DNA from: a virus | Taxonomy: Duplodnaviria > Heunggongvirae > Uroviricota > Caudoviricetes | Direction: 5' to 3' (one strand) | Virus record (IMG/VR): IMGVR_UViG_2541047714_000007 | DNA length: 35,964 nucleotides | Shown here: positions 280 to 35,964 of the stretch, piece by piece | Layout: each line of letters opens with the position of its first letter | Position numbering within the stretch: position 1 is the first letter of the stretch | Made by a program: the position numbers and the translations under genes | The notes under the pieces: generated by a model | What the model was told of the DNA's origin: nothing | Seen by the model: the letters and a program-made list of their open reading frames with translations, nothing else | The model's database searches: none

Positions 280-281
280 AA

Positions 282-8131: not shown

Positions 8132-8206
8132 AGTGGTTAACCTCCGGGGAAGGTGAAAAGACGTGAGGGGATAACGCAGAACAGCCGCTACTGGCGGCTG
8201 TCTGTA

Positions 8207-8464
8207 CTATGATTTGTCGCCGTACTCGCTTTTGATTTGCTCTTCAGCCTGCTCCAGCCACATCTCCAGATCGTCAGTATCGAGGGCATCAATCTCCCCC
8301 GGCTGAAACCGGAACCATCTCGCCAGCAGCCCCTGCGCCTGCGTCAGCGCCCTGGTTGCTCTCACCCATCCCCGTGATGAGCTGAAATCGTTTCTGTAAC
8401 TGCAGGTAATCAGCCAGATCCATATTGTCGAGATCTTCCGGGAGAAGACCAGTACTGCGGGCAA
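8207..8464 (-). CDS. Putative frameshift extension of the tail assembly chaperone (E'-like)
   Basis: Open frame overlapping the 3' part of the chaperone gene and ending 76 bp before the tape-measure start. It has no ATG (nominal TTG start). It lies in the +1 frame relative to the chaperone (codon first bases at 8464-3k versus 8624-3k). Confidence 0.4.
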   Translation of the reverse strand: MPAVLVFSRKISTIWIWLITCSYRNDFSSSRGWVRATRALTQAQGLLARWFRFQPGEIDALDTDDLEMWLEQAEEQIKSEYGDKS

Positions 8465-21852: not shown

Positions 21853-22596
21853 ATGACACATACACTGAATCCGGTCATCACTGTCACCGTGTCCGGTCCT
21901 GTGGGCAGCGGTAAAAGTTACGTACTGGCGCGGATAGAGGAAGTGGTGAAACAGGAACTCGGAAACAGCGTCATTGTCGATGCCGCAGACGTGGACGGTG
22001 AGCGCCGTATGAGTGGCGATGATCTGACGACCTGGCAGAAGCCACGGGCTGGCACAGTGATCAGGCTGGAGGAATACACGGGACAGGGCCTGTTGTCATA
22101 CGGCGAGGAGCGTATCTGTCGGACGAATGAGCTACTGGATGTTATATGCCCCACGGGCCGGCAACCCTGGATACTGCCCGATGCACTGCATGCCACCATT
22201 GCGGCACTGATGACAGTTTACGATCAGGAGCTGCTCATGAAGGAGTTACGTAAACTCACCGGTCAGCCAACAGAATGTTGTTCGTCCCCGAAGTACGGGA
22301 AACAGGAACACATCCCGGTAAACACAATCCCCGTTAACCAGCCTCCCCGGTTCTTCGACGAATACATTCTGACACCGGAAAATAAAGCTGAGCATGAAGA
22401 GATCAAAGCGGCGTTGTTCCGGGAAATCAGGAAGATTGCTGAAATGCAGCTGGGGGGCGGGCTGGACAGAGTGATGGCGAGAGGAGAATGGGCATCGCTG
22501 TTTGAAAGAGTTTCCCCGGAATTACTTCCCCTCGCACTGGCTATCGGGATTATGCAGACAGCAGATAAACCTCACTTACGTTCATTAAACACGTAA
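21853..22596 (+). CDS. P-loop NTPase, kinase-like (function unknown)
   Basis: 247 aa; Walker A VSGPVGSGKSY at residues 13-23, then SVIVDAADVD about 18 residues later, an arrangement like small P-loop kinases (shikimate/gluconate-kinase or zeta-toxin-like fold). GGAG upstream of the ATG. Confidence 0.6.
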   Translation: MTHTLNPVITVTVSGPVGSGKSYVLARIEEVVKQELGNSVIVDAADVDGERRMSGDDLTTWQKPRAGTVIRLEEYTGQGLLSYGEERICRTNELLDVICPTGRQPWILPDALHATIAALMTVYDQELLMKELRKLTGQPTECCSSPKYGKQEHIPVNTIPVNQPPRFFDEYILTPENKAEHEEIKAALFREIRKIAEMQLGGGLDRVMARGEWASLFERVSPELLPLALAIGIMQTADKPHLRSLNT

Positions 22597-22976
22597 CGCA
22601 TAATCCGGGATACGCATTCAGCGATGACTGCATTTTCGCCGGTTTTTACTGCATCCAGAAGCAACTCTTTAAATGGTACGGGCCGGGGCTGCAGAAAGGT
22701 CGGCATGGCATTGAGCAGACAGAGCGTTTTTTCCGTGAGGACGACATCAGCCGCTCCCACAGCCAGCAACTGAGAGTAACGAATATAGCTGTTATCCCGA
22801 AGCCATATCAGCGTATCAATAAAATACCGGCACTTTTTCTGGTCGTGATCAACCTGGTCCGGGATATCGAAAAAACCAGAATAAATCAAAACCTGAGGTG
22901 CCGGATGCGTGTTCAGTAATCGGCAGAATATTTTGCCGGTGAGTACATAAAAATCATCATTTAAGGAGTGCATCAT
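22572..22976 (-). CDS. Hypothetical protein, convergent with the P-loop gene
   Basis: 134-aa ORF starting ATGATG at 22976; its 3' end overlaps the P-loop gene 3' end by 25 bp. Slightly AT-richer than the surrounding phage genes by eye. Confidence 0.4.
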   Translation of the reverse strand: MMHSLNDDFYVLTGKIFCRLLNTHPAPQVLIYSGFFDIPDQVDHDQKKCRYFIDTLIWLRDNSYIRYSQLLAVGAADVVLTEKTLCLLNAMPTFLQPRPVPFKELLLDAVKTGENAVIAECVSRIMRYVFNERK

Positions 22977-23190
22977 GAATCCCCGATTAACGTTAACAGA
23001 ACATCAGCGCCGTGCCGAAGCAGTGAACAATGTTCTGGAAGATATTATCCGGTTACATCGCGGAGAACTGAGTATCTGTCGTGCCACTGTTCATTTTCAG
23101 GAAATACAAAAGCAGTTCGATACTTCTGTTTTTGCAGAAGGGATCACTTATGCCCTGGACCAGATAAAGGCAGACAATCACCCCGGATAA
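22975..23190 (+). CDS. Hypothetical small protein
   Basis: 71-aa ORF with AAGGAG 6 nt upstream of the ATG at 22975; its start codon overlaps the divergent start codon of the 134-aa ORF. Confidence 0.35.
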   Translation: MNPRLTLTEHQRRAEAVNNVLEDIIRLHRGELSICRATVHFQEIQKQFDTSVFAEGITYALDQIKADNHPG

Positions 23191-23224
23191 TCCCTAAACC
23201 ACATTAACAGAAATCCCACTATCC

Positions 23225-23345
23225 CTGCCGCATCATGAAAGAACGACCAGCCCGGTGCTTCGGACCCACCGGACTGGCCATCGTCCCACAGAAGTGGCTG
23301 TGAGCCGACCGAGGTTCAGTCAGTCTCGCGAGACCAGACTAGCCT
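23225..23345. other. GC-rich structured intergenic element upstream of the methyltransferase gene
   Basis: Hairpin CCAGCCCGGTG-cttcggacc-CACCGGACTGG (11-bp stem, one mismatch) and a perfect 12-bp palindrome GTCTCGCGAGAC; no ORF. Confidence 0.35.
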
Positions 23346-23381
23346 GCCATATTTTTAATAATTGTAAAAGGCTTACAGATT

Positions 23382-24146
23382 ATGAAAATGCAGACATTAC
23401 CCATCGTTCCATGGATTGGTGGCAAACGCCGCCTTGCAAAACACATTCTGCCGCTGTTTCCGGCGCATGAATGTTATGTGGAGCCGTTCTGTGGGGCAGC
23501 AGCGCTCTATTTTCTTAAGACACCCGGCAAGATCGAAGTCATTAATGATATCAACGGTGAACTGGTGAATCTGTACCGGGTGGTAAAGCATCACCTGGAA
23601 GAATTTGTCCGCCAGTTCAAATGGGCGCTGGTCAGCCGTCAGATCTACAAATGGCTGCAGATCACCCCGGAAGAAACACTGACGGATATCCAGCGTGCGG
23701 CACGGTTCTACTACCTTCAGAAGCAGGCGTTTGGCGGCAAGGTGGCAGAGCACAGCTTCGGTACCTCCACCACATCCCCGCCACGCTTCAACCTGCTGCG
23801 TATTGAAGAAGAACTGTCAGCAGCACACCTGCGGCTTTCCAGAACAGTCATAGAACACATGGACTGGCAACAGTGCATTGAGCGTTATGATCGTCCGCAC
23901 ACGCTGTTCTACTGCGACCCACCGTACCTGGGTACGGAAGGCTATGGTGTGGATTTTCCTGAAGAGAACTACACACTACTCGCAGAACTGGCCCGGTGCA
24001 TCAGAGGAAAGATGATTATCTCGGTGAACGACATTCCGCAGATGCGTCGGGTGTTCACTGAACTGAACATACAGACGGTGAATATCAACTACAGTCTGGC
24101 GGGTAAACCCACGCCGCGCCGTGAACTGGTAATCTGCAACTTCTGA
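23382..24146 (+). CDS. DNA adenine N6-methyltransferase, Dam family
   Basis: N-terminus PIVPWIGGKRRLAKHILPLFPAHECYVEPFCGAAALYF parallels E. coli Dam (WAGGK...LVEPFVGAGSVF); catalytic DPPY motif present (YCDPPYLGTEGYG). Confidence 0.9.
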   Translation: MKMQTLPIVPWIGGKRRLAKHILPLFPAHECYVEPFCGAAALYFLKTPGKIEVINDINGELVNLYRVVKHHLEEFVRQFKWALVSRQIYKWLQITPEETLTDIQRAARFYYLQKQAFGGKVAEHSFGTSTTSPPRFNLLRIEEELSAAHLRLSRTVIEHMDWQQCIERYDRPHTLFYCDPPYLGTEGYGVDFPEENYTLLAELARCIRGKMIISVNDIPQMRRVFTELNIQTVNINYSLAGKPTPRRELVICNF

Positions 24147-24262: not shown

Positions 24263-24610
24263 TCAGCCTGTAAATTTACTTGGTTTGGGTTGAGTATAGA
24301 ATCGCCCAACCTCAAGAAATGAGCGTCGTTGTTCCGGAGTCATTTCATCAAATGCGTCCATTAATTTTTGTTTTTCTGGTGACATTTTTGGGACAACATT
24401 GGTCATTACATCCCCTCTCTGTCCTGTAACAACGTAAAGCACGTCAAGCCCTAAAGTAGCCCAAATTGCCAAAGCATCTGCTCCGGGAGCGGATTCATCC
24501 TTTTCCCACCGCAATTGGCTTTTATAGGATGCCCCCACCAATTCAGCAAACTCAGACTGACTAAATCCTAGGCGGTTTCTTTCTTCTTTTAATCGTGAGC
24601 CAAGTGACAT
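24263..24610 (-). CDS. XRE-family HTH repressor (immunity repressor candidate)
   Basis: HTH region SRLKEERNRLGFSQSEFAELVGASYKSQLRWEKDES typical of Cro/C1-type; divergent from the early operon. Start chosen at the internal ATG at 24610 (MSLGSRLKEE...); the ORF track extends to 24640. Confidence 0.65.
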   Translation of the reverse strand: MSLGSRLKEERNRLGFSQSEFAELVGASYKSQLRWEKDESAPGADALAIWATLGLDVLYVVTGQRGDVMTNVVPKMSPEKQKLMDAFDEMTPEQRRSFLEVGRFYTQPKPSKFTG

Positions 24611-24702
24611 TTTTGTCCAATACCTATTTACATATCCCATTTTTGGGATAATAATCTAACATATATAGAGCAAACATCATTGCGTTAATAAAGGAGGCAA
24701 CA
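24611..24702. promoter_or_regulatory. Immunity switch region (divergent promoters/operators)
   Basis: AT-rich 92-bp gap between the repressor and the Ner/Cro-like gene; inverted repeat TATCCCA-tttt-TGGGATA at 24623-24640. Confidence 0.4.
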
Positions 24703-24891
24703 ATGACTGCAGAGCAGGTCAAAGCCCATTTCCGCCGCAACGGAATCACCTTTACCCAGTGGGCAAAACAGAACAACTACACCCGAGCAGAGGTTTACCG
24801 CGTACTGAATGGACAGGTAAAAGCGAACTATGGCAAAGCCCATGAAATCGCCGTCAAGCTGGGATTAAAAACCATCACTGACGCCGCTTAA
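24703..24891 (+). CDS. Ner/Cro-like small DNA-binding protein
   Basis: 62 aa; AAAGGAGG upstream of the ATG; pattern RRNG...TR.EVYRVLNG...GKAHEIAVKLGL resembles Ner/Nlp-family proteins; first gene of the rightward operon. Confidence 0.55.
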   Translation: MTAEQVKAHFRRNGITFTQWAKQNNYTRAEVYRVLNGQVKANYGKAHEIAVKLGLKTITDAA

Positions 24892-24943
24892 AAAGATACA
24901 GCATGCGAAAAAGATTATCACATATTGAAAAAGAGGTATGCAG

Positions 24944-25252
24944 ATGAGTAAGACGAATGTTTCAAGCTCCGGCAGTCGCATCCTCCGGGTACTCAAAGCG
25001 CTGCGCGGTCATGCCCTGAACGGTATTTCCAACGGTGAACTGGCAGCAGCACTGCACGAGTCACCGGCAAACATCAACCGGGCACTCAACACCCTCATTG
25101 AAGAAGGGCTGGCCCTGAAACTGGAGAATGGACGTTTTGCTCCTGGCATCCAGTTACTGCAGATCGCCATGGCTCACAGTAACGAGATGGCACGAGCGCA
25201 GGATCGTATTAACGAAATCAACCAACGTGTCATTTCAGGTAGTCGTTTGTAA
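24944..25252 (+). CDS. Putative winged-helix transcriptional regulator
   Basis: Start taken at the second ATG (24944), with AGAGG 7 nt upstream. N-terminal segment ILRVLKALRGHALNGISNGELAAALHESPANINRALNTLIEEGL looks like an IclR/MarR-type HTH. Confidence 0.45.
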   Translation: MSKTNVSSSGSRILRVLKALRGHALNGISNGELAAALHESPANINRALNTLIEEGLALKLENGRFAPGIQLLQIAMAHSNEMARAQDRINEINQRVISGSRL

Positions 25253-25262
25253 GGAGTAATCA

Positions 25263-26174
25263 ATGGGACGCACCAAATCACCGGTTAGCACTGAACTGAA
25301 CGCCGAGATACCGCTGTCTGATGATCTCAACGTCAGCCTGAATGCCATGACACAGCATCGTATGGAGATCATGCAGCAGTTCGGCGACGGCCTGCCCTAT
25401 GAACGTAATCGCATCGTTCACGAAACTCGGTTTTATATGGACCAGAGTGCGGAGGCTATGCTGGAGGCAGGTAAACGTTTGGTTATCCTGAAGGAAAATG
25501 AACCTCATGGAGAATACGTACAAATCGTCAAAGAACAGTTGAACCTTGAGCCACGCATAGCCCAAAAAATGGCCCAAGCTGCTCTGAAGTTTTTATCTCC
25601 AGAGCTGACATCAAAAGCGAAAACGTTTTCGCATTTGGGAAGATCAAAACTGTACGAATTGATGTTAGAGGATGATGAAGACCTTGCCGAACTGGCCGAC
25701 GGTGGCACAGTTGCCGGACTGACGCTTGACGACGTTGATCGCATGTCAGTACGTGAATTGCGTCAGTCTCTTCGCGAAGCCCGCGAAACCAACGCAGCAC
25801 AACAGCGCGTGCTGGCCGACAAAAATGAAAAAATAGACTCACTCTCCACCAGACTGGAGAAGAAATCCCGTATTCAGCCGCCTGAGCCTGACGAAGAGGT
25901 GAAGAAACTGCGGGCGGAAGTGACAGCGTTAGCGGTTGAGGCGGAATCAGCTATCGCCGTCCGACTGTCCAGCGCTTTTGAGACGCTGTGTGCATATTGT
26001 GCTGAAAACATGATTGATACCCCCAGAGACTTCATGGCAGGCCTGGTCTGTCAACTGGAAAGCACAGCGCGTAGCCTGCGCTCCACATTTGACCTGCCGG
26101 ACGAGCCAACAGGCGATGTCGCGCCTTCATGGCTGACTGAGCCGACGCCACAGATTAACGGGCTGGAGGCATAA
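25263..26174 (+). CDS. Hypothetical protein (303 aa) upstream of the transposase
   Basis: AGGAG upstream of the ATG; acidic, helical; no motif I can assign. Confidence 0.55.
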   Translation: MGRTKSPVSTELNAEIPLSDDLNVSLNAMTQHRMEIMQQFGDGLPYERNRIVHETRFYMDQSAEAMLEAGKRLVILKENEPHGEYVQIVKEQLNLEPRIAQKMAQAALKFLSPELTSKAKTFSHLGRSKLYELMLEDDEDLAELADGGTVAGLTLDDVDRMSVRELRQSLREARETNAAQQRVLADKNEKIDSLSTRLEKKSRIQPPEPDEEVKKLRAEVTALAVEAESAIAVRLSSAFETLCAYCAENMIDTPRDFMAGLVCQLESTARSLRSTFDLPDEPTGDVAPSWLTEPTPQINGLEA

Positions 26175-26177
26175 CCA

Positions 26178-27947
26178 ATGAATGCTGCCCTGACTGAACG
26201 ACTGGTTTATGTCGCCCGCGCGGCACGTGACGCGGGGCATGGTAAACGCGGTGCAATATATGACGCTGCCTGTGCTGAACTTGGCATGTCCCGCGCCACT
26301 CTGCTGCGCAGGCTGAAGGAGGTCTCTGTGACTGATAAACGCAAAAAACGCGCCGATGCCGGGCGCAGCGCCCTGACCCGCGACGAAGCCGCGCTGATAT
26401 CTGCCACACTGCGTGAGGCCACCCGCAAGAACGGTAAGCGTCTCTATTCCATCGCAGATGCAGTGGAAACCCTGCGGGCTAACGGCTTTATCACCGCAGG
26501 CAGAACAGATGAAACCACCGGTGAGTTTTTCCCGTTGTCCGAAGATGCCATCAGTCGTGCCCTGCGTAACTATGGCCTGCACCCGGAACAACTGGATGCC
26601 CCTGCGCCGCATACCGAAGTGGCCAGTCTGCATCCCAATCATGTCTGGCAGATTGACGCCTCACTCTGCACGCTTTACTACCTGAGCAATGGACATAAAG
26701 GGCTGCAGGTGATGGACAGCGCGAAGTTCTACAAGAACAAGCCCGCTAACCTTGCCCGTATCGCCAGTGACCGCGTGTGGAGTTACGAGATTACCGACCA
26801 TGCCAGCGGCTGGATTTACGTTGAGTATGTGACGGGCGCGGAATCCGGTGAGAACCTGTGTTCTGTGCTTATCAACGCCATGCAGGAGCGTGGCGGCGCA
26901 GACGTGCTGCACGGCGTGCCGAAAATACTCTATCTCGACCCCGGCTCGGCAAACACCGCGGGTATGACGAAAAACATGTGCCGCTCACTGGGCATCGACC
27001 TGATAGCGCACAAGCCGCATAACGCCCGCGCCACCGGACAGGTGGAAAAGGCGCGTGACATTATCGAACGCAAGCTGGAGCCGGGTCTGAAGTTCCAGCC
27101 GGTTCACAGTCTGGAAGAACTCAACGCGCTGGCCGCGAAATGGCGCAGCCACTTTAACGCCACGGCTGTTCACAGCCGCCACGGTAAAACCCGCACGGAT
27201 ATCTGGCTGAAGATTACTGCTGAGCAGCTGAAAAAAGCGCCTTCCGTTGAGGTATGCCGTGAACTGGCTGTGGCGGCACCAGAACTCCGCAAAGTCACGC
27301 CAAAACTTCGTGTCTCGTTCCGGGGCACTGAATTTGACGTATCAACGGTACCTGACGTACTGGTCGGTGAAAAACTGATGATTACCCGTAACCCGTGGCG
27401 CAGCGATGTGGCACAGGTGGTTCTGACCGGTGAGGACGGCCACGAGACGTTCTTCCTGGTCGAAGAGGTCAGAAAGAACGAGTTTGGCTTTGCTGAAGGC
27501 GCGGCGGTATTTGGCGAAAGTTACAAAGCCCTGCCGGAAACCCCGGCACAGATGGCGGCAAAAGAAACCGAAGCGCTGGTTACCGGTACAGACAACGCCG
27601 CAGATGCAGCCGCCGCACGCAAGGCGAAGGCGCTGCCGTTCGGCGGGCAGCTTGACCCGTATAAACATATCGACGACACCACACTTCCGGCCTATATGCC
27701 GAAGCGTGGTCAGGCCTCTGACGTACGCGGGCCGCGCACTGAACAACGTCCCATGACTCATGTGGAGGCCGCGAAAGCCCTGCGCGATAAGTTCAGCGCC
27801 GACGGCCTTACCTGGACGCCGGAACATTACCGCCAGTTAACGGCACAGTACCCGGACGGCGTACCGGAAGCCGCACTGGATGAAGTCATGGCCACGCTGA
27901 CCACACCGGCCCGCAGCAGTGTTATCAGCATTGTTAACGGCAACTGA
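26178..27947 (+). CDS. DDE transposase, MuA-like (integrase catalytic core)
   Basis: Candidate DDE triad in HVWQIDAS, ILYLDPGSANTAG and ATGQVEKA, with spacing typical of rve-type cores; followed immediately by a MuB-like ATPase gene; GGAGG upstream. Confidence 0.85.
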   Translation: MNAALTERLVYVARAARDAGHGKRGAIYDAACAELGMSRATLLRRLKEVSVTDKRKKRADAGRSALTRDEAALISATLREATRKNGKRLYSIADAVETLRANGFITAGRTDETTGEFFPLSEDAISRALRNYGLHPEQLDAPAPHTEVASLHPNHVWQIDASLCTLYYLSNGHKGLQVMDSAKFYKNKPANLARIASDRVWSYEITDHASGWIYVEYVTGAESGENLCSVLINAMQERGGADVLHGVPKILYLDPGSANTAGMTKNMCRSLGIDLIAHKPHNARATGQVEKARDIIERKLEPGLKFQPVHSLEELNALAAKWRSHFNATAVHSRHGKTRTDIWLKITAEQLKKAPSVEVCRELAVAAPELRKVTPKLRVSFRGTEFDVSTVPDVLVGEKLMITRNPWRSDVAQVVLTGEDGHETFFLVEEVRKNEFGFAEGAAVFGESYKALPETPAQMAAKETEALVTGTDNAADAAAARKAKALPFGGQLDPYKHIDDTTLPAYMPKRGQASDVRGPRTEQRPMTHVEAAKALRDKFSADGLTWTPEHYRQLTAQYPDGVPEAALDEVMATLTTPARSSVISIVNGN

Positions 27948-27957
27948 GGAGGGAAAC

Positions 27958-29124
27958 ATGCTGGTACTGAAGCAGCAACTGAAAGAGGCCCGTATTCCAC
28001 AGGCGGTGGTGGCGAGAGCTGTCGATGTTTCTGAGGCCACGCTGGCCCAGATTGTGAATCATAACGCGTGGCCCCGCACCAGCCCCGGAGAAGTGCGCCG
28101 GCGTCTTGCGTCCTGGCTGGAAAGTCAGGGGATTGATACAGCGAAGAGTTTTGATGCTGTACAGGGCGCGACCACGCCCCGTACAGCGGGTACCACAGAT
28201 AAAACGAGCCTCAGTGAGGAAGAGAATATGTTACTCAAAAAACAGGTGTTATTCCCGGCAACCAAAAAAGCGTTTGGTCTTTTCCGTGACCCGTTCGCCG
28301 ACGAAGCCATGCAGGGTTCTGATGATGTGTTCACCACCCCGGACATTCGCTACGTGCGTGAGGCGTTGTACCAGACAGCCCGTCATGGTGGGTTTATGGC
28401 CGTCATCGGTGAGTCCGGTGCGGGTAAATCCACGCTGCGCCGCGACCTGACTGAACGTATCAACCGCGAGAATGCGCCGGTAATTGTTATCGAGCCATAC
28501 ATCATCGCTATGGAAGACAACGATGTGAAAGGGAAAACCCTGAAGGCAGCAGCGATTGCCGAAGCCATTATCAGTACCATCGCACCACTGGAAAGCATCA
28601 GACGCAGTCAGGACGCCCGCTTTCGCCAGTTGCATCGCGTCCTGAAAGACAGCAGCCAGGCGGGGTTCAGCCACGTTCTGGTGATTGAGGAGGCCCACAG
28701 TCTGCCTATTCCGACACTGAAACACCTCAAACGCTTTTTTGAGCTGGAGTCCGGTTTCAAAAAACTGCTGTCCATCGTGCTGATTGGCCAGCCGGAACTG
28801 GCGACAAAACTGTCTGAACGCAATATGGAAGTCCGTGAAGTCGTTCAGCGCTGTGAGGTGGTCGAACTTCTGCCTCTGGACAATAACCTTGAAGAGTTTC
28901 TGACGTTCAAACTGCAACGGGCCGGTAAACAACTGACGGACATTATGGACGCCAGCGCAGTGGATGCCATACGCGCCCGCCTGAGCAATCCGGGAAGTCA
29001 TCGTAAAAATATGGTCAGCCTGCTGTATCCGCTGGCCGTCAGTAACCTGGTAATAGCCGCCATGAATCTGGCCGCTGAAATCGGGGTTCCACAGGTCAAC
29101 GCTGACGTTGTCAAAGGGGTTTAA
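27958..29124 (+). CDS. Transposition ATPase, MuB-like AAA+ protein
   Basis: Walker A GESGAGKST and Walker B-like HVLVIEEAH; N-terminal HTH-like segment. Start taken at the ATG at 27958 (MLVLKQ...) with GAGGAGGG upstream. Confidence 0.75.
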   Translation: MLVLKQQLKEARIPQAVVARAVDVSEATLAQIVNHNAWPRTSPGEVRRRLASWLESQGIDTAKSFDAVQGATTPRTAGTTDKTSLSEEENMLLKKQVLFPATKKAFGLFRDPFADEAMQGSDDVFTTPDIRYVREALYQTARHGGFMAVIGESGAGKSTLRRDLTERINRENAPVIVIEPYIIAMEDNDVKGKTLKAAAIAEAIISTIAPLESIRRSQDARFRQLHRVLKDSSQAGFSHVLVIEEAHSLPIPTLKHLKRFFELESGFKKLLSIVLIGQPELATKLSERNMEVREVVQRCEVVELLPLDNNLEEFLTFKLQRAGKQLTDIMDASAVDAIRARLSNPGSHRKNMVSLLYPLAVSNLVIAAMNLAAEIGVPQVNADVVKGV

Positions 29125-29126
29125 TA

Positions 29127-29396
29127 ATGAAATCCACCACAGGTATCAACCAGCAAATCAGCAAAGTGCAGTCAGCCATTATGGCGCTTAAGGCGACGAA
29201 CACGGATGTACAAAGCATCACCATCAGGGGTAACAAACCTGTCATCCGCGTTTCCCGGAGTGCGCATTGCATGCGCATGCTTGAGCAGGGAAAGGCCTGT
29301 TATCTGTATACCGGACATGACAACAGGGGACGTTTCCGTCAGGGCGTTTTCGAACTGCACGGCTGTCGCGTCGTGTGGCCGGAATCTTTGTGGTAA
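29127..29396 (+). CDS. Hypothetical small protein (position of Mu kil/cim)
   Basis: 89-aa ORF translationally coupled to the B-like gene. Confidence 0.45.
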   Translation: MKSTTGINQQISKVQSAIMALKATNTDVQSITIRGNKPVIRVSRSAHCMRMLEQGKACYLYTGHDNRGRFRQGVFELHGCRVVWPESLW

Positions 29397-29423
29397 TCAG
29401 CATAACCGGAGAAATCATAAAAT

Positions 29424-29954
29424 ATGGCAAAAAGTACAAAAGGGGCAAAACGTATCAAGTCCGCAGCGGCACTCTGGGTACCAGGGACACGCGAAGAGGT
29501 CATTGAGGGCATCAGACTGCTCGGTGACGCACAACGTGAACTGGTCAGGGCTGAAACAGAAATGAATGACGCCATTGGCGATATCACCGCACGTTATGCC
29601 CCGCTCACCGAGAGCCTGAAAAAACGCATGGCCGAACTGCAGTCCGGTATTCAGACATGGTGTGAGGCACACCGTGATGAACTGACCGGCAACGGGAAGG
29701 TGAAGTTTGCTAACCTCACCACCGGCGAGGTGCAGTGGCGAAACCGTCCGCCGTCAGTCAGCATTCGCGGAGCGGATAATGTTATTGAACTACTGAGACG
29801 TCTGGGGCTTGAGCGCTTTATTCGTGTAAAAGAGGAAATAAATAAAGACGCCATCCTGAATGAAAAAGAGGCCGTGAAAAATATTCCCGGTATTACCATA
29901 AAAAGCGATATTGAGGATTTTTCAATAATTCCTTTTGAGCAGGATGTGCAGTAA
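29424..29954 (+). CDS. gam: Gam-like host-nuclease inhibitor (DNA end-binding protein)
   Basis: 176 aa. Segments MAKSTKGAKRIKSAAA, TEMNDAI, WCEAHRDELT, VRPPSVSIRG and IEDFSIIPFEQ closely track my recollection of Mu Gam (174 aa). Confidence 0.85.
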   Translation: MAKSTKGAKRIKSAAALWVPGTREEVIEGIRLLGDAQRELVRAETEMNDAIGDITARYAPLTESLKKRMAELQSGIQTWCEAHRDELTGNGKVKFANLTTGEVQWRNRPPSVSIRGADNVIELLRRLGLERFIRVKEEINKDAILNEKEAVKNIPGITIKSDIEDFSIIPFEQDVQ

Positions 29955-30048
29955 ACACACCACGTTAATTATTTAATAAAAACATTTTCTTTTTTATTCC
30001 GGCGTCAGCGCCGCGGGCTTCTGCACGCCGGAAACAGGAGAATTCATC
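29955..30048 (+). promoter_or_regulatory. AT-rich tract plus GC-rich inverted repeat in the early operon
   Basis: TTAATTATTTAATAAAAACATTTTCTTTTTTATT followed by CCGGCGTCAG...CTGCACGCCGG inverted repeat, then AGGAG RBS of the next gene. Confidence 0.3.
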
Positions 30049-30243
30049 ATGATATTTAAATGTATTCAGTGCGAAAGAGATATTACAACCCTGCGTTTTC
30101 ACAGCGCCATCGCCGTGATGTCCGGTAAATACCACATCCCTGCGGTACGCGTCACCCTGGTCTGCCCGTACTGCAGCCAGCATTTTTCGGCAGATGTGCC
30201 CGTTATGGAGTTCTCACGCCCGGACAGGGAGGACGCGCAATGA
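30049..30243 (+). CDS. Small zinc-ribbon protein
   Basis: 64 aa with CxxC...CxxC (CIQCERD ... CPYCSQ); AGGAG upstream. Confidence 0.5.
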   Translation: MIFKCIQCERDITTLRFHSAIAVMSGKYHIPAVRVTLVCPYCSQHFSADVPVMEFSRPDREDAQ

Positions 30244-30512
30244 TTACCCCACAGGAAGCACATCAGCGCGCCCGCGCCCTTGTTGAACGGTACCTCAACG
30301 AGTGTGAATGCCGTGACCTCACCGATATCATGTGCGCCCTGACGGCGTTAATCAGCATGGCCACGCAGGCCATTGTGGCGACTAACGGAAAGGAGGCCGC
30401 CCTGCAGATACTGGTGAACACACTCACCCACGCGGCAGAGCACGAGGTGCCGTACCGGATGGAAATCACTGCAGAAGGCGATCTGCACATCATTGTTGAC
30501 CGGAAGCACTGA
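30240..30512 (+). CDS. Hypothetical protein
   Basis: 90-aa ORF translationally coupled to its neighbours. Confidence 0.45.
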   Translation: MITPQEAHQRARALVERYLNECECRDLTDIMCALTALISMATQAIVATNGKEAALQILVNTLTHAAEHEVPYRMEITAEGDLHIIVDRKH

Positions 30513-30521
30513 GGGCGCGGT

Positions 30522-30827
30522 ATGACACGGAACACCATACTCACACGCACTGCCCTCTATCGTCTGGCCCTGCAGCGTTTCGGGCCGGACGCACAGGCCC
30601 TGAAACTGACAGAAGAGGCCGCTGAACTGGCGGCCAGTGCCGCCCGCAACCTGAACGGACAGGGCAGCGAAAGTGACCTCGCGGCAGAGCTGGCAGACGT
30701 GGAAATCATGACAGAGCAGTTGCGCCTTCAGGGGATGGGCCGGCTGATTGACTTCCACAAACAGAAAAAACTGGAACGCCTTGCCGCACGGCTGGGCGTC
30801 ATGTACACCGGAGATACTGAACAATGA
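30522..30827 (+). CDS. MazG-like nucleotide pyrophosphohydrolase (small all-alpha NTP-PPase)
   Basis: 101 aa with an E-x2-E ... E-x2-D arrangement (LTEEAAELAA ... AAELADVEIM) typical of MazG-like domains. Confidence 0.55.
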   Translation: MTRNTILTRTALYRLALQRFGPDAQALKLTEEAAELAASAARNLNGQGSESDLAAELADVEIMTEQLRLQGMGRLIDFHKQKKLERLAARLGVMYTGDTEQ

Positions 30828-31507
30828 CAGACCAGAATAAACACATTGAGAAATTGAAAAAGTTGCTGGCGCTGGCCGCATCCGGCAACCCACACGAGGC
30901 CGCTCTGGCACTGCGCCGTGCCCGTAAACTGATGGATGTTCACGGCATCACACATTCCGACATTGCCATGAGTGATATTGATGAAACCATCAGTCATTAC
31001 TGGCCGACAGGCAGTCTCCGTCCACCGCGCTACATGCTGGGCCTGATGAACATCATCCGCGAGGCATTTGGTGTTAACTCCATCATTCACCCCGGCACAT
31101 ATCCGGGTGTGGGGTTCTACGGCAACCGGGAACGTGCGGCACTGGCTGCATACACCTGGGAAGTGCTGGCCCGTCAGCTGAAAAAGGCGCGTCAGCAGTA
31201 TATCAGCACACAGAACAAAAGAATAAAAACTGCCACCCGTACCAGCCGTGGTGACCAGTTTGCTGAAGGCTGGGTGCTGGCCGTTATCAGTGAAATACAG
31301 TCCTTCGCCCTGACCGATGACGAACGTGAACTGATGCAGCAGTGGCTGGAACATAAATACCCGCAAACGCAAACCACCAGAGCGCGTAAACCGGGAAGAA
31401 GCCGCAATGGCGACGCCTCGCGCTATGCGGGGTTTCGTGAAGGGCAGAACGTCAGACTGCACCGCCCGGTCAGTGGGCAGGCACAACAGAAACTGGAGGC
31501 CAGATGA
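30824..31507 (+). CDS. Hypothetical protein with DUF2786-like N-terminal region
   Basis: 227 aa; N-terminus IEKLKKLLALAASGNPHEAALALRRARKLM resembles a widespread phage/plasmid domain of unknown function. Confidence 0.5.
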   Translation: MTDQNKHIEKLKKLLALAASGNPHEAALALRRARKLMDVHGITHSDIAMSDIDETISHYWPTGSLRPPRYMLGLMNIIREAFGVNSIIHPGTYPGVGFYGNRERAALAAYTWEVLARQLKKARQQYISTQNKRIKTATRTSRGDQFAEGWVLAVISEIQSFALTDDERELMQQWLEHKYPQTQTTRARKPGRSRNGDASRYAGFREGQNVRLHRPVSGQAQQKLEAR

Positions 31508-31734
31508 TTACGCTATCAGGTAAAAGCCGGAAATTAAAAGCCTGCCGAATATCTGCCAGATACCTTTTTGCCCGCGCCTTTTTTAAGAACGTCAGGCCGG
31601 GGATCACAATTGGTGTTATTGCCGGACGCGAACAGGTTGAAAAATACATGTCAGGTGCATGGTGGGATAACGACCCTGTCATTGCTGCCCGTAATATTCA
31701 TATCAGTTGGGGGGATATTCAGAATGACGGCTGA
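31504..31734 (+). CDS. Hypothetical small protein
   Basis: 76-aa ORF overlapping its neighbours at start and stop. Confidence 0.4.
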   Translation: MITLSGKSRKLKACRISARYLFARAFFKNVRPGITIGVIAGREQVEKYMSGAWWDNDPVIAARNIHISWGDIQNDG

Positions 31735-31939
31735 ATCTGTTGTATGTGCCCTGTTCTGGTATTGTTTTGTCGGTTGGTGTACTGCTGAACTGCACCGCCG
31801 TTCAGGGTTTTATTCACGTTACAGTGGTGCCGGCTACTGGATTAGCTGGTCGGTGATGTTCCTGTGCTGGCCTGTGGCGCTTCCTTTATATGTCGATTAT
31901 ATCGGTGGCGCAGGTAAAAGGAGCAACGATGATGACTAA
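31724..31939 (+). CDS. Small hydrophobic protein
   Basis: Start taken at the ATG at 31724 (MTAESVVCALFWYCFVGWCTAEL...); two hydrophobic segments. Confidence 0.4.
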   Translation: MTAESVVCALFWYCFVGWCTAELHRRSGFYSRYSGAGYWISWSVMFLCWPVALPLYVDYIGGAGKRSNDDD

Positions 31940-32381
31940 ACAACGTCTTATCCAGCTCATTCATATTGCCCGTAATGAACTGGGTATGGATGAAGACACC
32001 TACCGCCAGATGTTACAGGGGCTGACCGGTAAAGCCTCAACCAAAGGAATGGATACCACACAACTAAACTGCGTGCTGGAATCCATGAAAAAGAAAGGCT
32101 TTCGCGTTAAACCAGCCAGAAAAGCCAGCTCCGGTTTACCGCTGGATAACCATCCGCAGTCCAGGAAAATTCGTGCGCTATGGCTTGAAATGGCTGCTGC
32201 CGGCATTGTTCGTGACCGTTCAGAAAATGCATTAGCGAGGTGGATCAAGCGGGAAACGGGCATCAGCGCCCTGCGCTGGCTCAGTACTGAACAGGCAAGC
32301 AGTGTTATTGAGAAACTGAAGAAGTGGCAGCGCAGAGCTGCGGGAGTCAAACATGAGCGACCTGAATCAGTTTCGAAGTAA
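31929..32381 (+). CDS. gemA: GemA-like protein (Mu gp16 family)
   Basis: Start at ATGATG 31929 with AAGGAG upstream; sits immediately upstream of the Mor-like gene, as gemA does in Mu. Confidence 0.65.
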   Translation: MMTKQRLIQLIHIARNELGMDEDTYRQMLQGLTGKASTKGMDTTQLNCVLESMKKKGFRVKPARKASSGLPLDNHPQSRKIRALWLEMAAAGIVRDRSENALARWIKRETGISALRWLSTEQASSVIEKLKKWQRRAAGVKHERPESVSK

Positions 32382-32739
32382 AGGGCCGGAACTCCTGGTG
32401 GAGCTGGCACAGCATACCTCTGAGACCGTTCGCGAGATTATTGATATTGAGCCCGAAGTTGCCGACCAGATTGGTCAGGCCGTCGCGAACCGCATGATGC
32501 AGGTCTGGGGCGGGCAAAACGTTTATTTTCCTATGGGGATGAGATGGAAGATAAGCCAGCGTGACCGTGAAATCTATGAGGCGTTTAACGGACGTAACCA
32601 CCACGAACTGTCCCGCAGATTCAGGGTTTCAGTTCCCTGGATTTACAACCTGGTGAAGCGCGTAAGAAAGGAAGAAATCAGCCGGTTGCAGGGGCAGTTA
32701 TTCGAAGACGATGATGAACCGGATGACAGCCGGGATTAA
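32353..32739 (+). CDS. mor: Mor/C-family transcriptional activator
   Basis: 128 aa, acidic C-terminus, central region ...YFPMGMRWKISQRDREIYEAFNGRNHHELSRRFRVSVPWIYNLVKRVR... characteristic of the Mor family; located at the end of the early operon. Confidence 0.75.
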   Translation: MSDLNQFRSKGPELLVELAQHTSETVREIIDIEPEVADQIGQAVANRMMQVWGGQNVYFPMGMRWKISQRDREIYEAFNGRNHHELSRRFRVSVPWIYNLVKRVRKEEISRLQGQLFEDDDEPDDSRD

Positions 32740-32756
32740 TCAAAAGCGAGGTGATA

Positions 32757-32993
32757 ATGCGCTATAAAACCCCCAACAGCGCCCCCCTGAAGAAGGCAGA
32801 CCATGCAGATATGGCGATGGAAATTATCCGGCATTTTTTTGACGGTCTGACTTCTGCTGAGGCGAGATATGTTCTCCGGGAATGCGACAGGCTGATTGAC
32901 AACTCGCGCCTGCATATCGGGCCTGATGAAAATTGTGTTTTGTATTACGGGAAAGTTTTACGTAACCCACCACCACCGCCACCAAAGTGTTAA
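32757..32993 (+). CDS. Hypothetical small protein with poly-Pro C-terminus
   Basis: Start at the ATG at 32757 with GCGAGG 6 nt upstream; ends ...NPPPPPPKC. Confidence 0.4.
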   Translation: MRYKTPNSAPLKKADHADMAMEIIRHFFDGLTSAEARYVLRECDRLIDNSRLHIGPDENCVLYYGKVLRNPPPPPPKC

Positions 32994-33021
32994 CGAACGT
33001 CAATAAATTCCCGGTTTATGA

Positions 33022-33055
33022 AAAGCGCAATGGATAACCTGTTGCGCTTTTTTTA
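33022..33055 (+). terminator. Rho-independent terminator at the end of the early operon
   Basis: Stem AAAGCGCAA (33022-33030) / TTGCGCTTT (33042-33050) with an 11-nt loop, followed by a T-run. Confidence 0.65.
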
Positions 33056-33087
33056 TTCTGGCAGAAAAACATATCACCGGAGGAAAT

Positions 33088-33732
33088 ATGTTTGATGCAT
33101 CCTTGCTGAATCTGCCATGGGCAACGCTGGTGACGCTCACCAGTGGTTATATCGGCTATTTTATTGCGAACGTGGGGCTGAAGAACCATCACAAACCCAT
33201 TGAGGTGACGTTTTCGACGCTGATTTTTGGTTTGCTGTCAATGATGGTTTACCAGGCTGTTATGTGGGCAGGTCTGAATTCGTGGCTGGCGACACCTCCA
33301 ACACTTCTTTGCGCTTTTGCATACGCTGCATTATGGAGAAAATATGGGCGTAAATGGATGTACAGATTCCTCAGAAATAAGGATATATCATGGTCTGATG
33401 ATACCCCCTCTGCCTGGATGCGTATGTTTGATCAACATGGATACTATATCAGCGAGGCGTATGTCTATCTGAAGAATGGTACTGTGCTGCTTTCTGAAAA
33501 TCCGGGGAAATTTGAAGGCCAGGCCAGCGGTTCTTTTGTGTTAGGAGTGGAAAAAGACATAGTGATGTATGTCACTCATGAAAAAAAACCGGGGCGCGAT
33601 GAATGGATTGAAAAAGATGTTGAAAGTAAAAGCTGGGGAGCGATGGCAACCTATATCCCTGCAGATCAGATTGCCATGGTGAGGATCAGACGAACCAGAA
33701 ATAAAGCTATTAGCGCACGGCAGAAAGATTAG
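33088..33732 (+). CDS. Membrane protein (3 predicted TM helices + soluble C-terminal domain), function unknown
   Basis: 214 aa; hydrophobic segments WATLVTLTSGYIGYFIANVGL, VTFSTLIFGLLSMMVYQAVMWAGL and PPTLLCAFAYAALW; GGAGG upstream; gene visibly more AT-rich than the flanking phage genes. Confidence 0.6.
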   Translation: MFDASLLNLPWATLVTLTSGYIGYFIANVGLKNHHKPIEVTFSTLIFGLLSMMVYQAVMWAGLNSWLATPPTLLCAFAYAALWRKYGRKWMYRFLRNKDISWSDDTPSAWMRMFDQHGYYISEAYVYLKNGTVLLSENPGKFEGQASGSFVLGVEKDIVMYVTHEKKPGRDEWIEKDVESKSWGAMATYIPADQIAMVRIRRTRNKAISARQKD

Positions 33733-34027
33733 TCCCGTGGTGGCGGTGCATCGTCATCAGACTGAGAAGAACGGTTATCTGATGAATCGCCTGATGGTCC
33801 ATAACGTTCTGACTCAAAGGTAACGCATCCTTTCATATCTTCGGAAAAGTCAGATGGGTTGCTATTTTTATCGGGCATGGGCAATATTTCTCCATTCACG
33901 GAACACGGATTAGAAATTTTACCACTCATATTCTCTGTTTTTTGTGAACTGCTACCGTTTCACATACAGCAAAACAATTTCATAAAATTATTCGGTAGCA
34001 TTCGTTTTAACCCACTCCCGTTCGAAA

Positions 34028-34060
34028 TTATCTCACGAATCACCATTCATTTATCTCACG
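34028..34060 (+). repeat. Direct repeat TTATCTCACG x2 in an AT-rich non-coding region
   Basis: Copies at 34028-34037 and 34051-34060, 23 bp apart, upstream of the TraR-like gene. Confidence 0.4.
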
Positions 34061-34120
34061 TCCCTTCACATTGATTCAGCATCAGAAATCGAAGAATTAC
34101 AGCGCAATACAGCAATAAAA

Positions 34121-34276
34121 ATGCGTCGTCTGAACTACCAGACTGTATCCGCAACTCATTGTTGTGAGTGTGGCGATCCGATAGATGAGCGAAGACGCCT
34201 GGCTGTTCAGGGTTGTCGGACTTGTGCAAGTTGCCAGGAGGAGATCGAACTTAAGAACAAACAATGGGGACTATGA
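34121..34276 (+). CDS. TraR/DksA-family C4 zinc-finger protein
   Basis: 51-aa ORF (below the ORF-track size cut-off) MRRLNYQTVSATHCCECGDPIDERRRLAVQGCRTCASCQEEIELKNKQWGL with the C-x2-C-x17-C-x2-C spacing of the DksA/TraR family. Confidence 0.55.
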   Translation: MRRLNYQTVSATHCCECGDPIDERRRLAVQGCRTCASCQEEIELKNKQWGL

Positions 34277-34323
34277 TGGCCTCAAAGCAGCAAATTTCAA
34301 CATCGTCCAACTGAGGTGTAAAA

Positions 34324-34602
34324 ATGTTCAGAATCATTTTTCCTAACACCTGGTACGTCGACCACCACGGCACTCCCTGCAAAATCCTGCGTTCTACCCA
34401 CAACAAAGTTCACTACATCCGAAAAGGCAGAACATGTATCGCCAGCATGTTCCGCTTTAATCATGACTTTGAACCTGTGAATAAAGCTGATGCAGATCGG
34501 ATAGCAGAAGAGATCGAAACGGCAGAACACATTAAGAAGTTACGTGACATGCGTTCAAAAAGCAGAGGTAACCATGGAATCATACAGCCTCACACTCGAT
34601 GA
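34324..34602 (+). CDS. Hypothetical protein
   Basis: 92-aa ORF with GAGGTG 5 nt upstream of the ATG; 3' end overlaps the excisionase start. Confidence 0.45.
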   Translation: MFRIIFPNTWYVDHHGTPCKILRSTHNKVHYIRKGRTCIASMFRFNHDFEPVNKADADRIAEEIETAEHIKKLRDMRSKSRGNHGIIQPHTR

Positions 34603-34945
34603 GGCCTGTCAGTTTCTTAAGATATCCAGACCAACCGCCACCAACTGGATACGAACAGGCCGCCTACAGGCAACACGTAAAGATCCAACCAAGCCAAAAT
34701 CTCCTTACCTCACAACACGGCAAGCCTGCATTGCGGCGCTTCAGTCTCCGCTGCATACTGTCCAGGTGAGCGCGGGTGATGGCATAACAGAGGAAAGAAA
34801 ATGTCACTCTTCCGCAGAAATGAAATATGGTATGCCTCGTATTCGCTCCCGGGCGGGAAACGAATTAAGGAATCTCTTGGCACAAAGGACAAGCGGCAAG
34901 CTCAGGAGTTGCACGACAAGCGAAAAGCAGAACTCTGGCGAGTAG
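34574..34945 (+). CDS. xis: Excisionase (Xis-family DNA-binding protein); 3' end uncertain
   Basis: Start at the ATG at 34574 ([32 protein letters not shown]...) with GAGGT 4 nt upstream. The open frame overlaps the integrase start by 145 nt. Confidence 0.6.
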
Positions 34946-35964
34946 AAAAGCTAGGGGATTTACCTGATGTCACTTTTGAAGAGGCCTGCCTAAGATGGCT
35001 TGAGGAAAAAGCTGATAAAAAATCTCTCGATTCAGATAAAAGCCGGATTGAGTTCTGGCTTGAACATTTTGAGGGTATAAGGCTTAAAGATATCTCGGAG
35101 GCAAAGATTTACTCTGCTGTAAGCAGAATGCATAACAGAAAGACGAAAGAAATATGGAAACAGAAAGTTCAGGCCGCCATCAGGAAAGGTAAAGAACTGC
35201 CTGTTTATGAACCAAAGCCAGTATCAACTCAGACAAAGGCAAAGCATCTTGCCATGATAAAGGCCATTCTCCGTGCTGCAGAACGCGACTGGAAGTGGCT
35301 GGAAAAAGCGCCTGTCATCAAGATACCAGCGGTCAGAAACAAGCGAGTCAGATGGCTGGAAAAGGAGGAAGCAAAACGCCTTATTGATGAGTGCCCCGAA
35401 CCACTGAAATCTGTCGTCAAGTTTGCGCTGGCAACTGGTCTGAGAAAGTCGAACATCATAAATCTGGAATGGCAACAAATCGACATGCAGCGACGAGTTG
35501 CCTGGGTGAATCCAGAAGAGAGCAAATCAAACCGCGCCATTGGTGTGGCGCTGAACGATACCGCCTGTAAAGTGTTGCGTGATCAAATAGGCAAGCATCA
35601 CAAATGGGTGTTTGTACATACCAAGGCGGCTAAGCGAGCAGATGGAACATCAACGCCTGCGGTCAGGAAGATGCGCATCGACAGCAAGACATCATGGCTA
35701 TCAGCTTGTCGTCGTGCAGGAATTGAAGATTTCCGTTTCCATGACCTCAGACACACCTGGGCAAGCTGGCTGATTCAGTCAGGCGTCCCATTATCAGTGC
35801 TTCAGGAAATGGGCGGATGGGAGTCCATAGAAATGGTTCGTAGGTATGCTCACCTTGCGCCTAATCATTTGACAGAGCATGCGAGGAAAATAGACGACAT
35901 TTTTGGTGATAATGTCCCAAATATGTCCCACTCTGGAATTATGGAGGATATAAAGAAGGCGTAA
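34801..35964 (+). CDS. int: Tyrosine integrase, lambdoid (DLP12 IntD-like)
   Basis: 387 aa; N-terminus [40 protein letters not shown] and C-terminal catalytic region [47 protein letters not shown] closely match my recollection of E. coli prophage integrase IntD. Stop codon is the last 3 bases of the window. Confidence 0.9.

Follow-up and report, generated by a model that had tools for sequence, protein, structure and literature searches.

A BcepMu-like transposable prophage joined to a lambda-like integrase arm at argU in Escherichia coli: two prophages, probably nested

Genes and right end of the transposable prophage

We analyzed a stretch of 35,964 nucleotides (the window). Positions 1 to 34,068 hold most of a BcepMu/B3-type transposable prophage of about 38 kb. 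About 4.1 kb of the element, the end with the tail fibre, invertible segment, and Gin recombinase, is missing from the window and lies inside an assembly gap. The late genes are on the minus strand (1 to 21,755) and the early genes on the plus strand (24,703 to 32,739), with the repressor gene divergent from the early operon. The features of this part are as follows.

1 to 34,068, strand not given: BcepMu-like (Bcepmuvirus-type) transposable prophage, by identity to sibling copies and synteny with BcepMu
24,263 to 24,640, minus: repressor with a helix-turn-helix (HTH) domain (Pfam HTH_3; 36% identical to BcepMu gp17)
24,703 to 24,891, plus: first early gene, small HTH protein in the Ner position (49% identical to BcepMu gp16)
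26,178 to 27,947, plus: TnpA, DDE transposase of the rve/Tn552-B3-BcepMu type (Pfam rve only)
27,958 to 29,124, plus: TnpB, transposition ATPase of the AAA_22/ExeA family (Pfam AAA_22, E = 4e-20)
29,424 to 29,954, plus: Gam host-nuclease inhibitor (Pfam Phage_Mu_Gam, E = 6e-41)
31,890 to 32,381, plus: GemA (Pfam GemA, E = 1e-40)
32,353 to 32,739, plus: Mor late-transcription activator (Pfam Mor, E = 5e-41)
33,020 to 33,052, plus: intrinsic terminator closing the early operon (14-bp stem, then a T run)
33,088 to 33,732, plus: 214-aa membrane protein of unknown function (PHROG 12870, E = 7e-92)
34,026 to 34,037 and 34,049 to 34,060 (span, 34,026 to 34,060), plus: two putative transposase-binding repeats, (A/T)TTATCTCACG, from a pattern search and alignment with BcepMu
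34,067 to 34,068, plus: terminal CA dinucleotide, the right end of the transposable prophage, from the limits of sibling and lambdoid matches

The initial annotation, made from the sequence alone, had called this operon Mu-type. Pfam confirmed its Gam, GemA, and Mor. The gene taken for Ner-like does encode a small HTH protein and occupies the Ner position, but it had no Ner family match in Pfam and only weak HTH matches. The transposase had been called MuA-like. However, the sole Pfam domain of TnpA is rve (35.8 bits), no MuA-family Pfam domain was found, and TnpA is 68% identical to BcepMu gp09 and 57% identical to phage B3 TnpA (tblastn, 98 to 100% of the length). It is therefore of the BcepMu/B3/Tn552 type. 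MuA structures are deposited in the PDB, and a phmmer search of TnpA against all PDB chains gave no match to a chain named transposase at an E value of ≤0.01. TnpB had no informative match among PDB sequences. An ATPase is indeed present where a MuB-like one had been proposed, and we type it as AAA_22/ExeA; it is 59% identical to BcepMu gp08.

The rightward operon had been described as terminating at about 33,055. The early-operon terminator fits that position, but the element itself does not end there and runs about 1 kb farther, through the membrane-protein gene, to 34,068. This gene is low-GC, end-proximal cargo of the transposable phage and adjoins the element end in every sibling copy. 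PADLOC, run on the accessory genes, returned a methyltransferase only and no match for the membrane protein. No terminator-like site was found on the plus strand between 33,052 and 34,900.

A search for Mu-type ends near 33,000 to 34,100 had been proposed, and it located the CA terminus with two repeats just inside it. The right end reads ...CCCTTCA, with its last base at 34,068, and the opposite end, read in sibling copies, begins with TG. The two putative transposase-binding repeats are spaced 23 bp apart and are the only two matches to their pattern in the 36-kb window. The terminus and both repeats match their counterparts at the BcepMu left end, and the TG...CA termini with their 23-bp-spaced repeats can be aligned with both BcepMu ends.

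The lambdoid arm at argU

Matches to sibling copies all stop at 34,068, and matches to lambdoid prophages all begin at 34,069. From there on, the DNA matches at 100% identity the TraR/DksA-DUF4222-Xis-IntD arm carried by lambdoid prophages and by active lambdoid phages. It contains the following genes.

34,069 to 34,276, plus: 3' part of a lambdoid TraR/DksA-family zinc-finger gene (PHROG 54, profile positions 24 to 71)
34,324 to 34,602, plus: DUF4222 protein of the lambdoid prophage (Pfam DUF4222, E = 2e-19)
34,574 to 34,945, plus: excisionase, long form of 123 aa (PHROG 2907, residues 1 to 116 of a 117-position profile, E = 6e-46)
34,801 to 35,964, plus: IntD-type tyrosine integrase (Pfam Phage_integrase, E = 5e-47; RefSeq name, intD)

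The excisionase and the tyrosine integrase thus point toward the window edge, as first described, and their genes overlap by 145 nt. PGAP labels xis a pseudogene. We rejected this label, because the 123-aa reading frame is a full-length PHROG 2907 match and is identical in active phages; ev243, 2G7b, PhiR30_1, Turner, and other phages encode the same protein at 100% identity. The window itself contains no tRNA gene. The source scaffold, KE699264.1 (GCA_000456725.1), matches the window at 100% identity across 8,877 nt, and beyond the window edge it runs on into argU and fimZ. In it, the tRNA-Arg(UCU) gene argU lies 15 nt after the int stop codon and starts 16 nt past the window end, which is where a tRNA had been predicted.

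The TraR/DksA gene is cut after nucleotide 11, and its first 11 nt lie on the other side of the insert. At the empty site in lambdoid locus L002, TraR is intact (7990 to 8208). The insertion point maps between 8000 and 8001 of that locus, and the window picks the gene up again at its nucleotide 12. In L002, too, tRNA-Arg(UCU) follows the lambdoid int at a distance of 15 nt. A look-up of the 51-aa truncated TraR reading frame found other genomes that carry a different mobile unit within this gene.

The arm resembles that of lambdoids at argU (the DLP12 site; ev243, 2G7b, and the PhiR series) in adjoining tRNA-Arg(UCU) and in its sequence, with many E. coli prophages carrying the entire TraR-int arm at 100% identity. 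It differs from them in that a 38-kb insert splits it from the rest of the prophage and disrupts TraR.

Sibling copies and relatives of the transposable prophage

The prophage is 99.53% identical, over 34,071 aligned nt, to two complete 38.15-kb copies (L001 and L003). Copies of about 99.5% identity occupy about 20 different E. coli chromosomal sites, with distinct flanks that include sgbU, ycbJ/elyC, yeiE, nlpA, and cysS. In all eight sibling copies that were read at both ends, the target duplication is 6 bp (TGCCAA, GCCAGA, GCACAT, GTTTGC, GCTTTA, GTACGG, CTTGAC, and GGTAGG), not the 5 bp first expected. When the empty ycbJ/elyC site was reconstructed with one copy of its hexamer, it matched uninterrupted genomes at 100%. 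Duplications of 6 bp and TG-CA ends are reported for B3/Tn552-family transposable phages (PMC8705779), and rve/Tn552-type transposases are reported for BcepMu relatives (PMC2628397).

Escherichia phage PhiKM, which is classified in Bcepmuvirus, has 95% nucleotide identity over 82% of the query. BcepMu, PhiKM, and Klebsiella phage KP12 share one gene order with the prophage, in which the early operon runs opposite to the late genes. The initial annotation was right to ascribe divergent early and late modules to BcepMu-type phages, and a gene-by-gene comparison with BcepMu showed complete synteny and the same inversion as here. The two also share an rve/Tn552-type TnpA and an ExeA-type TnpB, the presence of Gam, GemA, and Mor with Mor and GemA adjoining one genome end, Mu-like head genes together with P2-like contractile-tail genes (the sheath is 78% identical), and TGAAG... 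termini with two spaced repeats. Unlike BcepMu, the element described here is in an E. coli host, and it has a Dam-type methylase region (21.8 to 24.1 kb) and the end-adjoining 214-aa membrane protein. In the sibling copies, a Mu-like invertible tail-fibre segment and a Gin-type recombinase take the place of the BcepMu acyltransferase gene.

Phage B3 of Pseudomonas is a siphovirus. Besides its similar TnpA, it shares the inverted early region, but its DNA similarity to the prophage is negligible. B3-like phages have inverted early regions, 6-bp target duplications, and TG-CA ends (PMC5977238 and PMC8705779). The resemblance to phage Mu lies in near-random transposition, in a repressor and small HTH gene followed by transposase and ATPase genes, in Gam, GemA, and Mor, and in the Gin-type invertible fibre segment. 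The prophage differs from Mu in having no MuA-family domain or sequence match, a 6-bp duplication (read in sibling copies) instead of 5 bp, and an early operon that is inverted with respect to the late genes.

Probable nesting of the two prophages

We queried 5,426 complete E. coli genomes by megablast with window positions 32,000 to 35,964, and the matches split sharply at 34,068/34,069. The left part was found at 98 to 100% identity in 10 genomes, at no fewer than seven unrelated loci (at least 7). The right part (TraR-DUF4222-xis-intD) was found in more than a thousand genomes. In none of the 5,426 did a single place cover both sides. Exact-pattern scans of GTDB representatives, IMG/VR, and JGI metagenomes found neither the observed right junction nor the predicted left junction, the latter with a 5- or 6-bp duplication allowed.

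These data bear on whether one phage could own both modules. A single hybrid with Mu-type transposition and lambdoid Int/Xis modules, able to integrate by either, had been offered as one reading, and the modules do lie side by side on a single strand of the window. However, each half is common alone, and their junction was seen in none of the complete E. coli genomes. A canonical TG...CA terminus stands directly before the int-side DNA, the sibling copies are complete and have moved to about 20 other sites with no integrase of their own, and the int arm is that of ordinary lambdoid phages, with a lambdoid gene split by the insert. We give a hybrid practically no credence. The transposase module comes from one known phage and the integrase module from another, and their nesting is ordinary.

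The other flank was read from the source scaffold. Beyond the insert and a gap of 2,479 Ns, lambdoid DNA starts again 74 nt before the insertion point. It follows L002 collinearly, at 99.96 to 100%, across exo, bet, gam, kil, cI, and O. The left junction falls inside this gap, and the order and orientation across it are the depositor's scaffolding. A simple insertion therefore rests on the flanks coming within 74 nt of each other, not on both junction sequences. It predicts that the Mu-like left end abuts ...ATGGCAGACATCATTGA and that the gap would read ...GACATCATTGA joined directly to TGATGCGCCGCG... The duplication length of the sibling copies points to the following hexamer, whose partner would lie at the left junction within the gap.

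34,069 to 34,074, plus: CATTGA, predicted right-hand copy of the 6-bp target-site duplication

It is very unlikely that a transposition-mediated deletion or inversion, or a Mu-like end beside a decayed DLP12-like remnant, produced this arrangement instead of a simple insertion. Replicative transposition can yield adjacent deletions and inversions, and the left junction of this copy is within the gap. However, the scaffold has correctly oriented, collinear lambdoid DNA 74 nt from the insertion point, and on the far flank the genes exo, bet, gam, kil, cI, and O are all intact. It is extremely improbable that the 34,068/34,069 junction arose from an assembly misjoin at a repeat boundary. The source assembly is 2013-era and scaffold-level, and it has a gap where the element's other end lies, but the right junction is within gap-free contig sequence and joins an exact transposon terminus to an interior, nonrepeated position in TraR. 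On the far side, the scaffold resumes 74 nt from that same position, and a misjoin by chance would not give these features together.

We conclude that the locus very probably holds two independent, nested prophages, a BcepMu/B3-type transposable phage inserted in a lambda-like prophage at argU, because of the exact CA terminus at 34,068, the split TraR/DksA gene, the collinear lambdoid flanks, and the same element at many other loci. This agrees with one proposal of the initial annotation, that a Mu-like prophage had transposed into a lambdoid one. That proposal spoke of a lambdoid remnant. However, the int-xis arm is identical to that of active phages, the early region is apparently full, and the lambdoid partner is not visibly a remnant, nor an obvious DLP12-like one. 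The transposable phage itself appears intact.

In the most likely sequence of events, a lambda-like prophage first integrated beside the argU tRNA-Arg gene by means of its IntD tyrosine integrase. Its leftward early operon runs cI ... kil, gam, bet, exo ... TraR/DksA, DUF4222, xis, int. A BcepMu/B3-type phage of about 38 kb, with TG...CA ends and two terminal transposase-binding repeats per end, later entered this operon by DDE transposition (an rve/Tn552-type TnpA and an AAA+ TnpB), after nucleotide 11 of the TraR/DksA gene.

The insert places xis and int 38 kb away from the lambdoid pL promoter, so the lambdoid prophage probably excises less well upon induction. Any composite that did excise would exceed 80 kb, more than could be packaged. 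We consider it unlikely that the two phages are functionally coupled. In one form of such coupling, the 38-kb insert would sever xis-int from pL and fix the lambdoid prophage at its site, with the transposable phage still active. In another, transcription leaving the Mu-like right end would drive DUF4222-xis-int, so that induction of one phage would excise the other.

For annotation, prophage callers and readers are prone to fuse the two elements into one "phage" with both a transposase and an integrase, and the true boundary is 34,068/34,069. The locus would be a further example of one prophage grounded by a transposable phage, which will not surprise a specialist. Duplications of 6 bp at near-random sites are now documented for E. 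coli BcepMu-like phages.

Gene content and the boundary at 34068/34069

The Pfam search bore out the gene content given in the initial annotation; a repressor, transposase, ATPase, Gam, GemA, Mor, and integrase were all recovered. There are no tRNA genes in the window.

Features of the window
23382-24146, Dam-type adenine methyltransferase, within accessory region 21853-24146
24263-24640, minus strand, HTH repressor (Pfam)
26178-27947, rve-core DDE transposase, TnpA (Pfam)
27958-29124, AAA_22/ExeA-type ATPase, TnpB (Pfam)
29424-29954, Gam (Pfam)
31890-32381, GemA (Pfam)
32353-32739, Mor (Pfam)
33020-33052, strong intrinsic terminator
33088-33732, 214-aa predicted membrane protein (PHROG 12870)
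34324-34602, DUF4222 gene (Pfam)
34574-34945, HTH_17 protein, xis (Pfam; PHROG 2907 excisionase)
34801-35964, tyrosine integrase, intD (Pfam)

With megablast, we compared window 32000-35964 with 5,426 complete E. coli genomes. The match breaks at one single base, 34068/34069. The sequence up to 34068 was found in ten genomes at 98 to 100% identity, and the surrounding host genes are unrelated (sgbU, ycbJ, yeiE, a sulfatase gene, nlpA, and others). The sequence from 34069 on is shared by many genomes at 100% identity as TraR/DksA-DUF4222-HTH-intD, and its best match was at least 99% identical in 1,721 records. The two parts were found at one place in none of the 5,426 genomes. The left part finishes with ...TTTATCTCACGTCCCTTCA, so CA is the terminal dinucleotide of the element. 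Only two copies of the motif ATTTATCKCRCG are present in the entire window (34026-34037 and 34049-34060), as a pair 23 bp apart immediately inside the 34068 end. The initial annotation proposed looking for Mu-type ends near 33,000-34,100; the CA end and the two repeats agree with this, but the target duplication in sibling copies is 6 bp, not 5.

Two readings had been offered at the outset, nested prophages or a hybrid. A true hybrid element carrying both integration systems is contradicted, because the two modules lack any conserved linkage in the 5,426 genomes and a canonical terminus lies between them. Nested prophages are the reading that stands, with the 34068 end in TraR and lambdoid DNA on both sides.

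Family and mobility of the transposable phage

Left of the boundary lies a mobile phage of the BcepMu type. TnpA is 68% identical to BcepMu gp09, 69% to its phiE255 counterpart, and 57% to that of Pseudomonas phage B3, and TnpB is 59% identical to BcepMu gp08. The portal, major capsid, sheath (78%), baseplate J, holin, and transglycosylase also match BcepMu, with their order kept. As in BcepMu, Mor-GemA-...-TnpB-TnpA run toward one end, opposite to the lysis, head, and tail genes, in agreement with the divergent early and late modules noted earlier for such phages. The window terminus, whose reverse complement is TGAAGGGACGTGAGATAAATG...CGTGAGATAATTT, can be aligned to the left end of BcepMu, TGAAGAGAGGTGAGATATTTC...CGCGCGATATTTC. 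Among deposited phages, Escherichia phage PhiKM (Bcepmuvirus) is the closest, sharing 95% nucleotide identity across 82% of the query. The transposase was first described as MuA-like DDE; its rve core is of DDE type, but no MuA-family Pfam domain was found, and the type is Tn552. When all PDB chains were searched by sequence, none named transposase came up at E<=0.01. BcepMu relatives have rve/Tn552-related transposases and TG...CA ends (PMC2628397), the target duplication is 6 bp in B3/Tn552-family phages versus 5 bp in Mu (PMC8705779), and the early operon is inverted in B3-like phages (PMC5977238).

Complete copies from five genomes (L001 and L003 to L006; 38.15 to 38.8 kb) all start with TGATGCGCCGCGCGATAAATG... 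and end with ...CCCTTCA. They are flanked by the 6-bp direct repeats TGCCAA, GCCAGA, GCACAT, GTTTGC, and GCTTTA, and both ends could be read in three further genomes reached by protein look-ups (GTACGG, CTTGAC, and GGTAGG). The ycbJ/elyC target, rebuilt with one hexamer copy, aligned end to end at 100% identity with uninterrupted genomes, and this settles both the boundaries and the 6-bp length of the duplication. In all, the insertions occupied about 20 different sites. Over 34,071 aligned nt, the window shares 99.53% identity with the sibling copies L001 and L003. One insertion site adjoins head genes of another prophage: in L012 (14456-20000) and L041 (GCA_050194545.1), the phage directly abuts podovirus-type head genes (Head-tail_con, GP7, and Bbp16/Bbp19 families). 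This copy is probably inside that prophage and, if so, is a second case of nesting.

The phage also has accessory regions. The gene for the 214-aa protein lies 3' of the early-operon terminator and adjoins the element end (33733-34068). Its GC content is low (about 44%), PHROG 12870 is of unknown function, and the protein has a weak DUF6338 match and no PADLOC match. It is kept in every sibling copy, appears in 1,211 blocks of the assembly collection, and could be a lysogenic-conversion or exclusion gene. Region 21853-24146, lying between lysis genes and repressor, encodes PHROGs 3787, 2266, and 4490 (function unknown) besides the methyltransferase. It is diverged or replaced in sibling copies L004 to L006 and thus looks like a variable cargo hotspot.

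The lambdoid prophage on both sides of the insert

To the right of the boundary lies the int-proximal arm of a lambdoid prophage. L002, where the prophage lacks the transposable phage, shows the uninterrupted order: cI (S24 peptidase), kil, gam, bet, exo, DUF1317, DUF1382, a 73-aa gene, TraR/DksA (7990-8208), DUF4222, xis, and intD; tRNA-Arg follows 15 nt after int, and then fimZ and the sfm genes. The window picks up at nucleotide 12 of the L002 TraR gene, between ...ATGGCAGACAT and CATTGATTC..., and the remaining fragment matches positions 24 to 71 of a DksA-like zinc-finger PHROG.

PGAP/RefSeq labels xis (window 34574-34945; L002 8506-8571) a pseudogene, as a 66-nt fragment. We rejected this label. 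The 123-aa ORF matches PHROG 2907 end to end (116/117 positions, E 6e-46) and is 100% identical in isolated, active lambdoid phages (e.g., ev243, 2G7b, PhiR30_1, and Turner). On these matches we treat xis as intact, and the label is probably a systematic annotation error.

Elsewhere in E. coli, the TraR/DksA gene is cut about 50 nt further in, at L017 (8443-10000; GCA_958430955.1) and at the contig starts of L019 and L020. The interrupting unit carries genes for a DDE_Tnp_1-family transposase, a class C beta-lactamase, a lipocalin (blc-like), and a sugE-like protein, followed by colicin Ia and microcin genes. The unit resembles a resistance/plasmid segment that has entered the chromosome, and the int-proximal lambdoid arm seems to collect insertions.

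The source scaffold, KE699264.1 (GCA_000456725.1; L029), came up in a look-up of the 214-aa protein near the element end. Scaffold and window agree at every base along 8,877 nt, junction included. Past the int end it continues into tRNA-Arg(UCU), the tRNA anticipated just past 35,964, and then fimZ and fimbrial genes. An assembly misjoin at the junction is unlikely, because the right junction lies in contiguous sequence, where the exact end of the transposon meets a non-repeated position in the interior of a gene. On the other side (L037), reached through baseplate protein J, the tail-fibre gene stops at a run of 2,479 N (record coordinates about 755373-757851); the window starts 2 nt from this gap, which explains its left edge. 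Beyond the gap, the sequence picks up at L002 coordinate 7927, 74 nt before the insertion point. From there as far as replication protein O it is collinear with L002 at 99.96 to 100%, a stretch that takes in the 73-aa gene, DUF1382, DUF1317, exo, bet, gam, kil, cI, and YdaS/YdaT. The IS21 inside exo (YqaJ) of L002 (4875-6844) is absent here, and exo is intact. Therefore, the same lambdoid prophage flanks the transposable element on both sides. The gap accounts for the missing ~4.1 kb of the element, its left junction, and the predicted second CATTGA. A transposition-mediated rearrangement in place of simple insertion is unlikely, because the two flanks approach each other to within 74 nt and are correctly ordered and oriented.

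Window 1-281 lies inside the tail-fibre gene. Complete copies (L001 36675-40956 and equivalents in L003, L004, and L005) have a multi-cassette invertible fibre segment with a Gin-type recombinase. Its arrangement differs from genome to genome, which probably caused the assembly break.

Proposed insertion model and its probable consequences

A lambdoid prophage sits at argU, the exact terminus of a BcepMu-type phage lies inside the lambdoid TraR gene, and the same transposable element is mobile elsewhere with 6-bp duplications. In the proposed mechanism, TnpB would have selected the target and TnpA would have cut it at CATTGA with a 6-bp stagger. Simple insertion predicts a left junction of ...ATGGCAGACATCATTGA followed by TGATGCGCCGCGCGATAAATG..., with CATTGA on both sides. 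The insert would lie inside the pL-driven operon upstream of xis, so that xis would probably be uncoupled from pL and lambdoid excision hindered. An excised composite would be too large for lambdoid packaging. The plus strand showed no terminator-like site from 33052 to 34900, and read-through from the Mu-like end into xis-int might occur.

The arrangement is an ordinary nesting of two phage types, both already sequenced. Its value is in annotation: the boundary at 34068/34069, the 6-bp duplication made by sibling copies, the Tn552-type transposase, and an intact xis.
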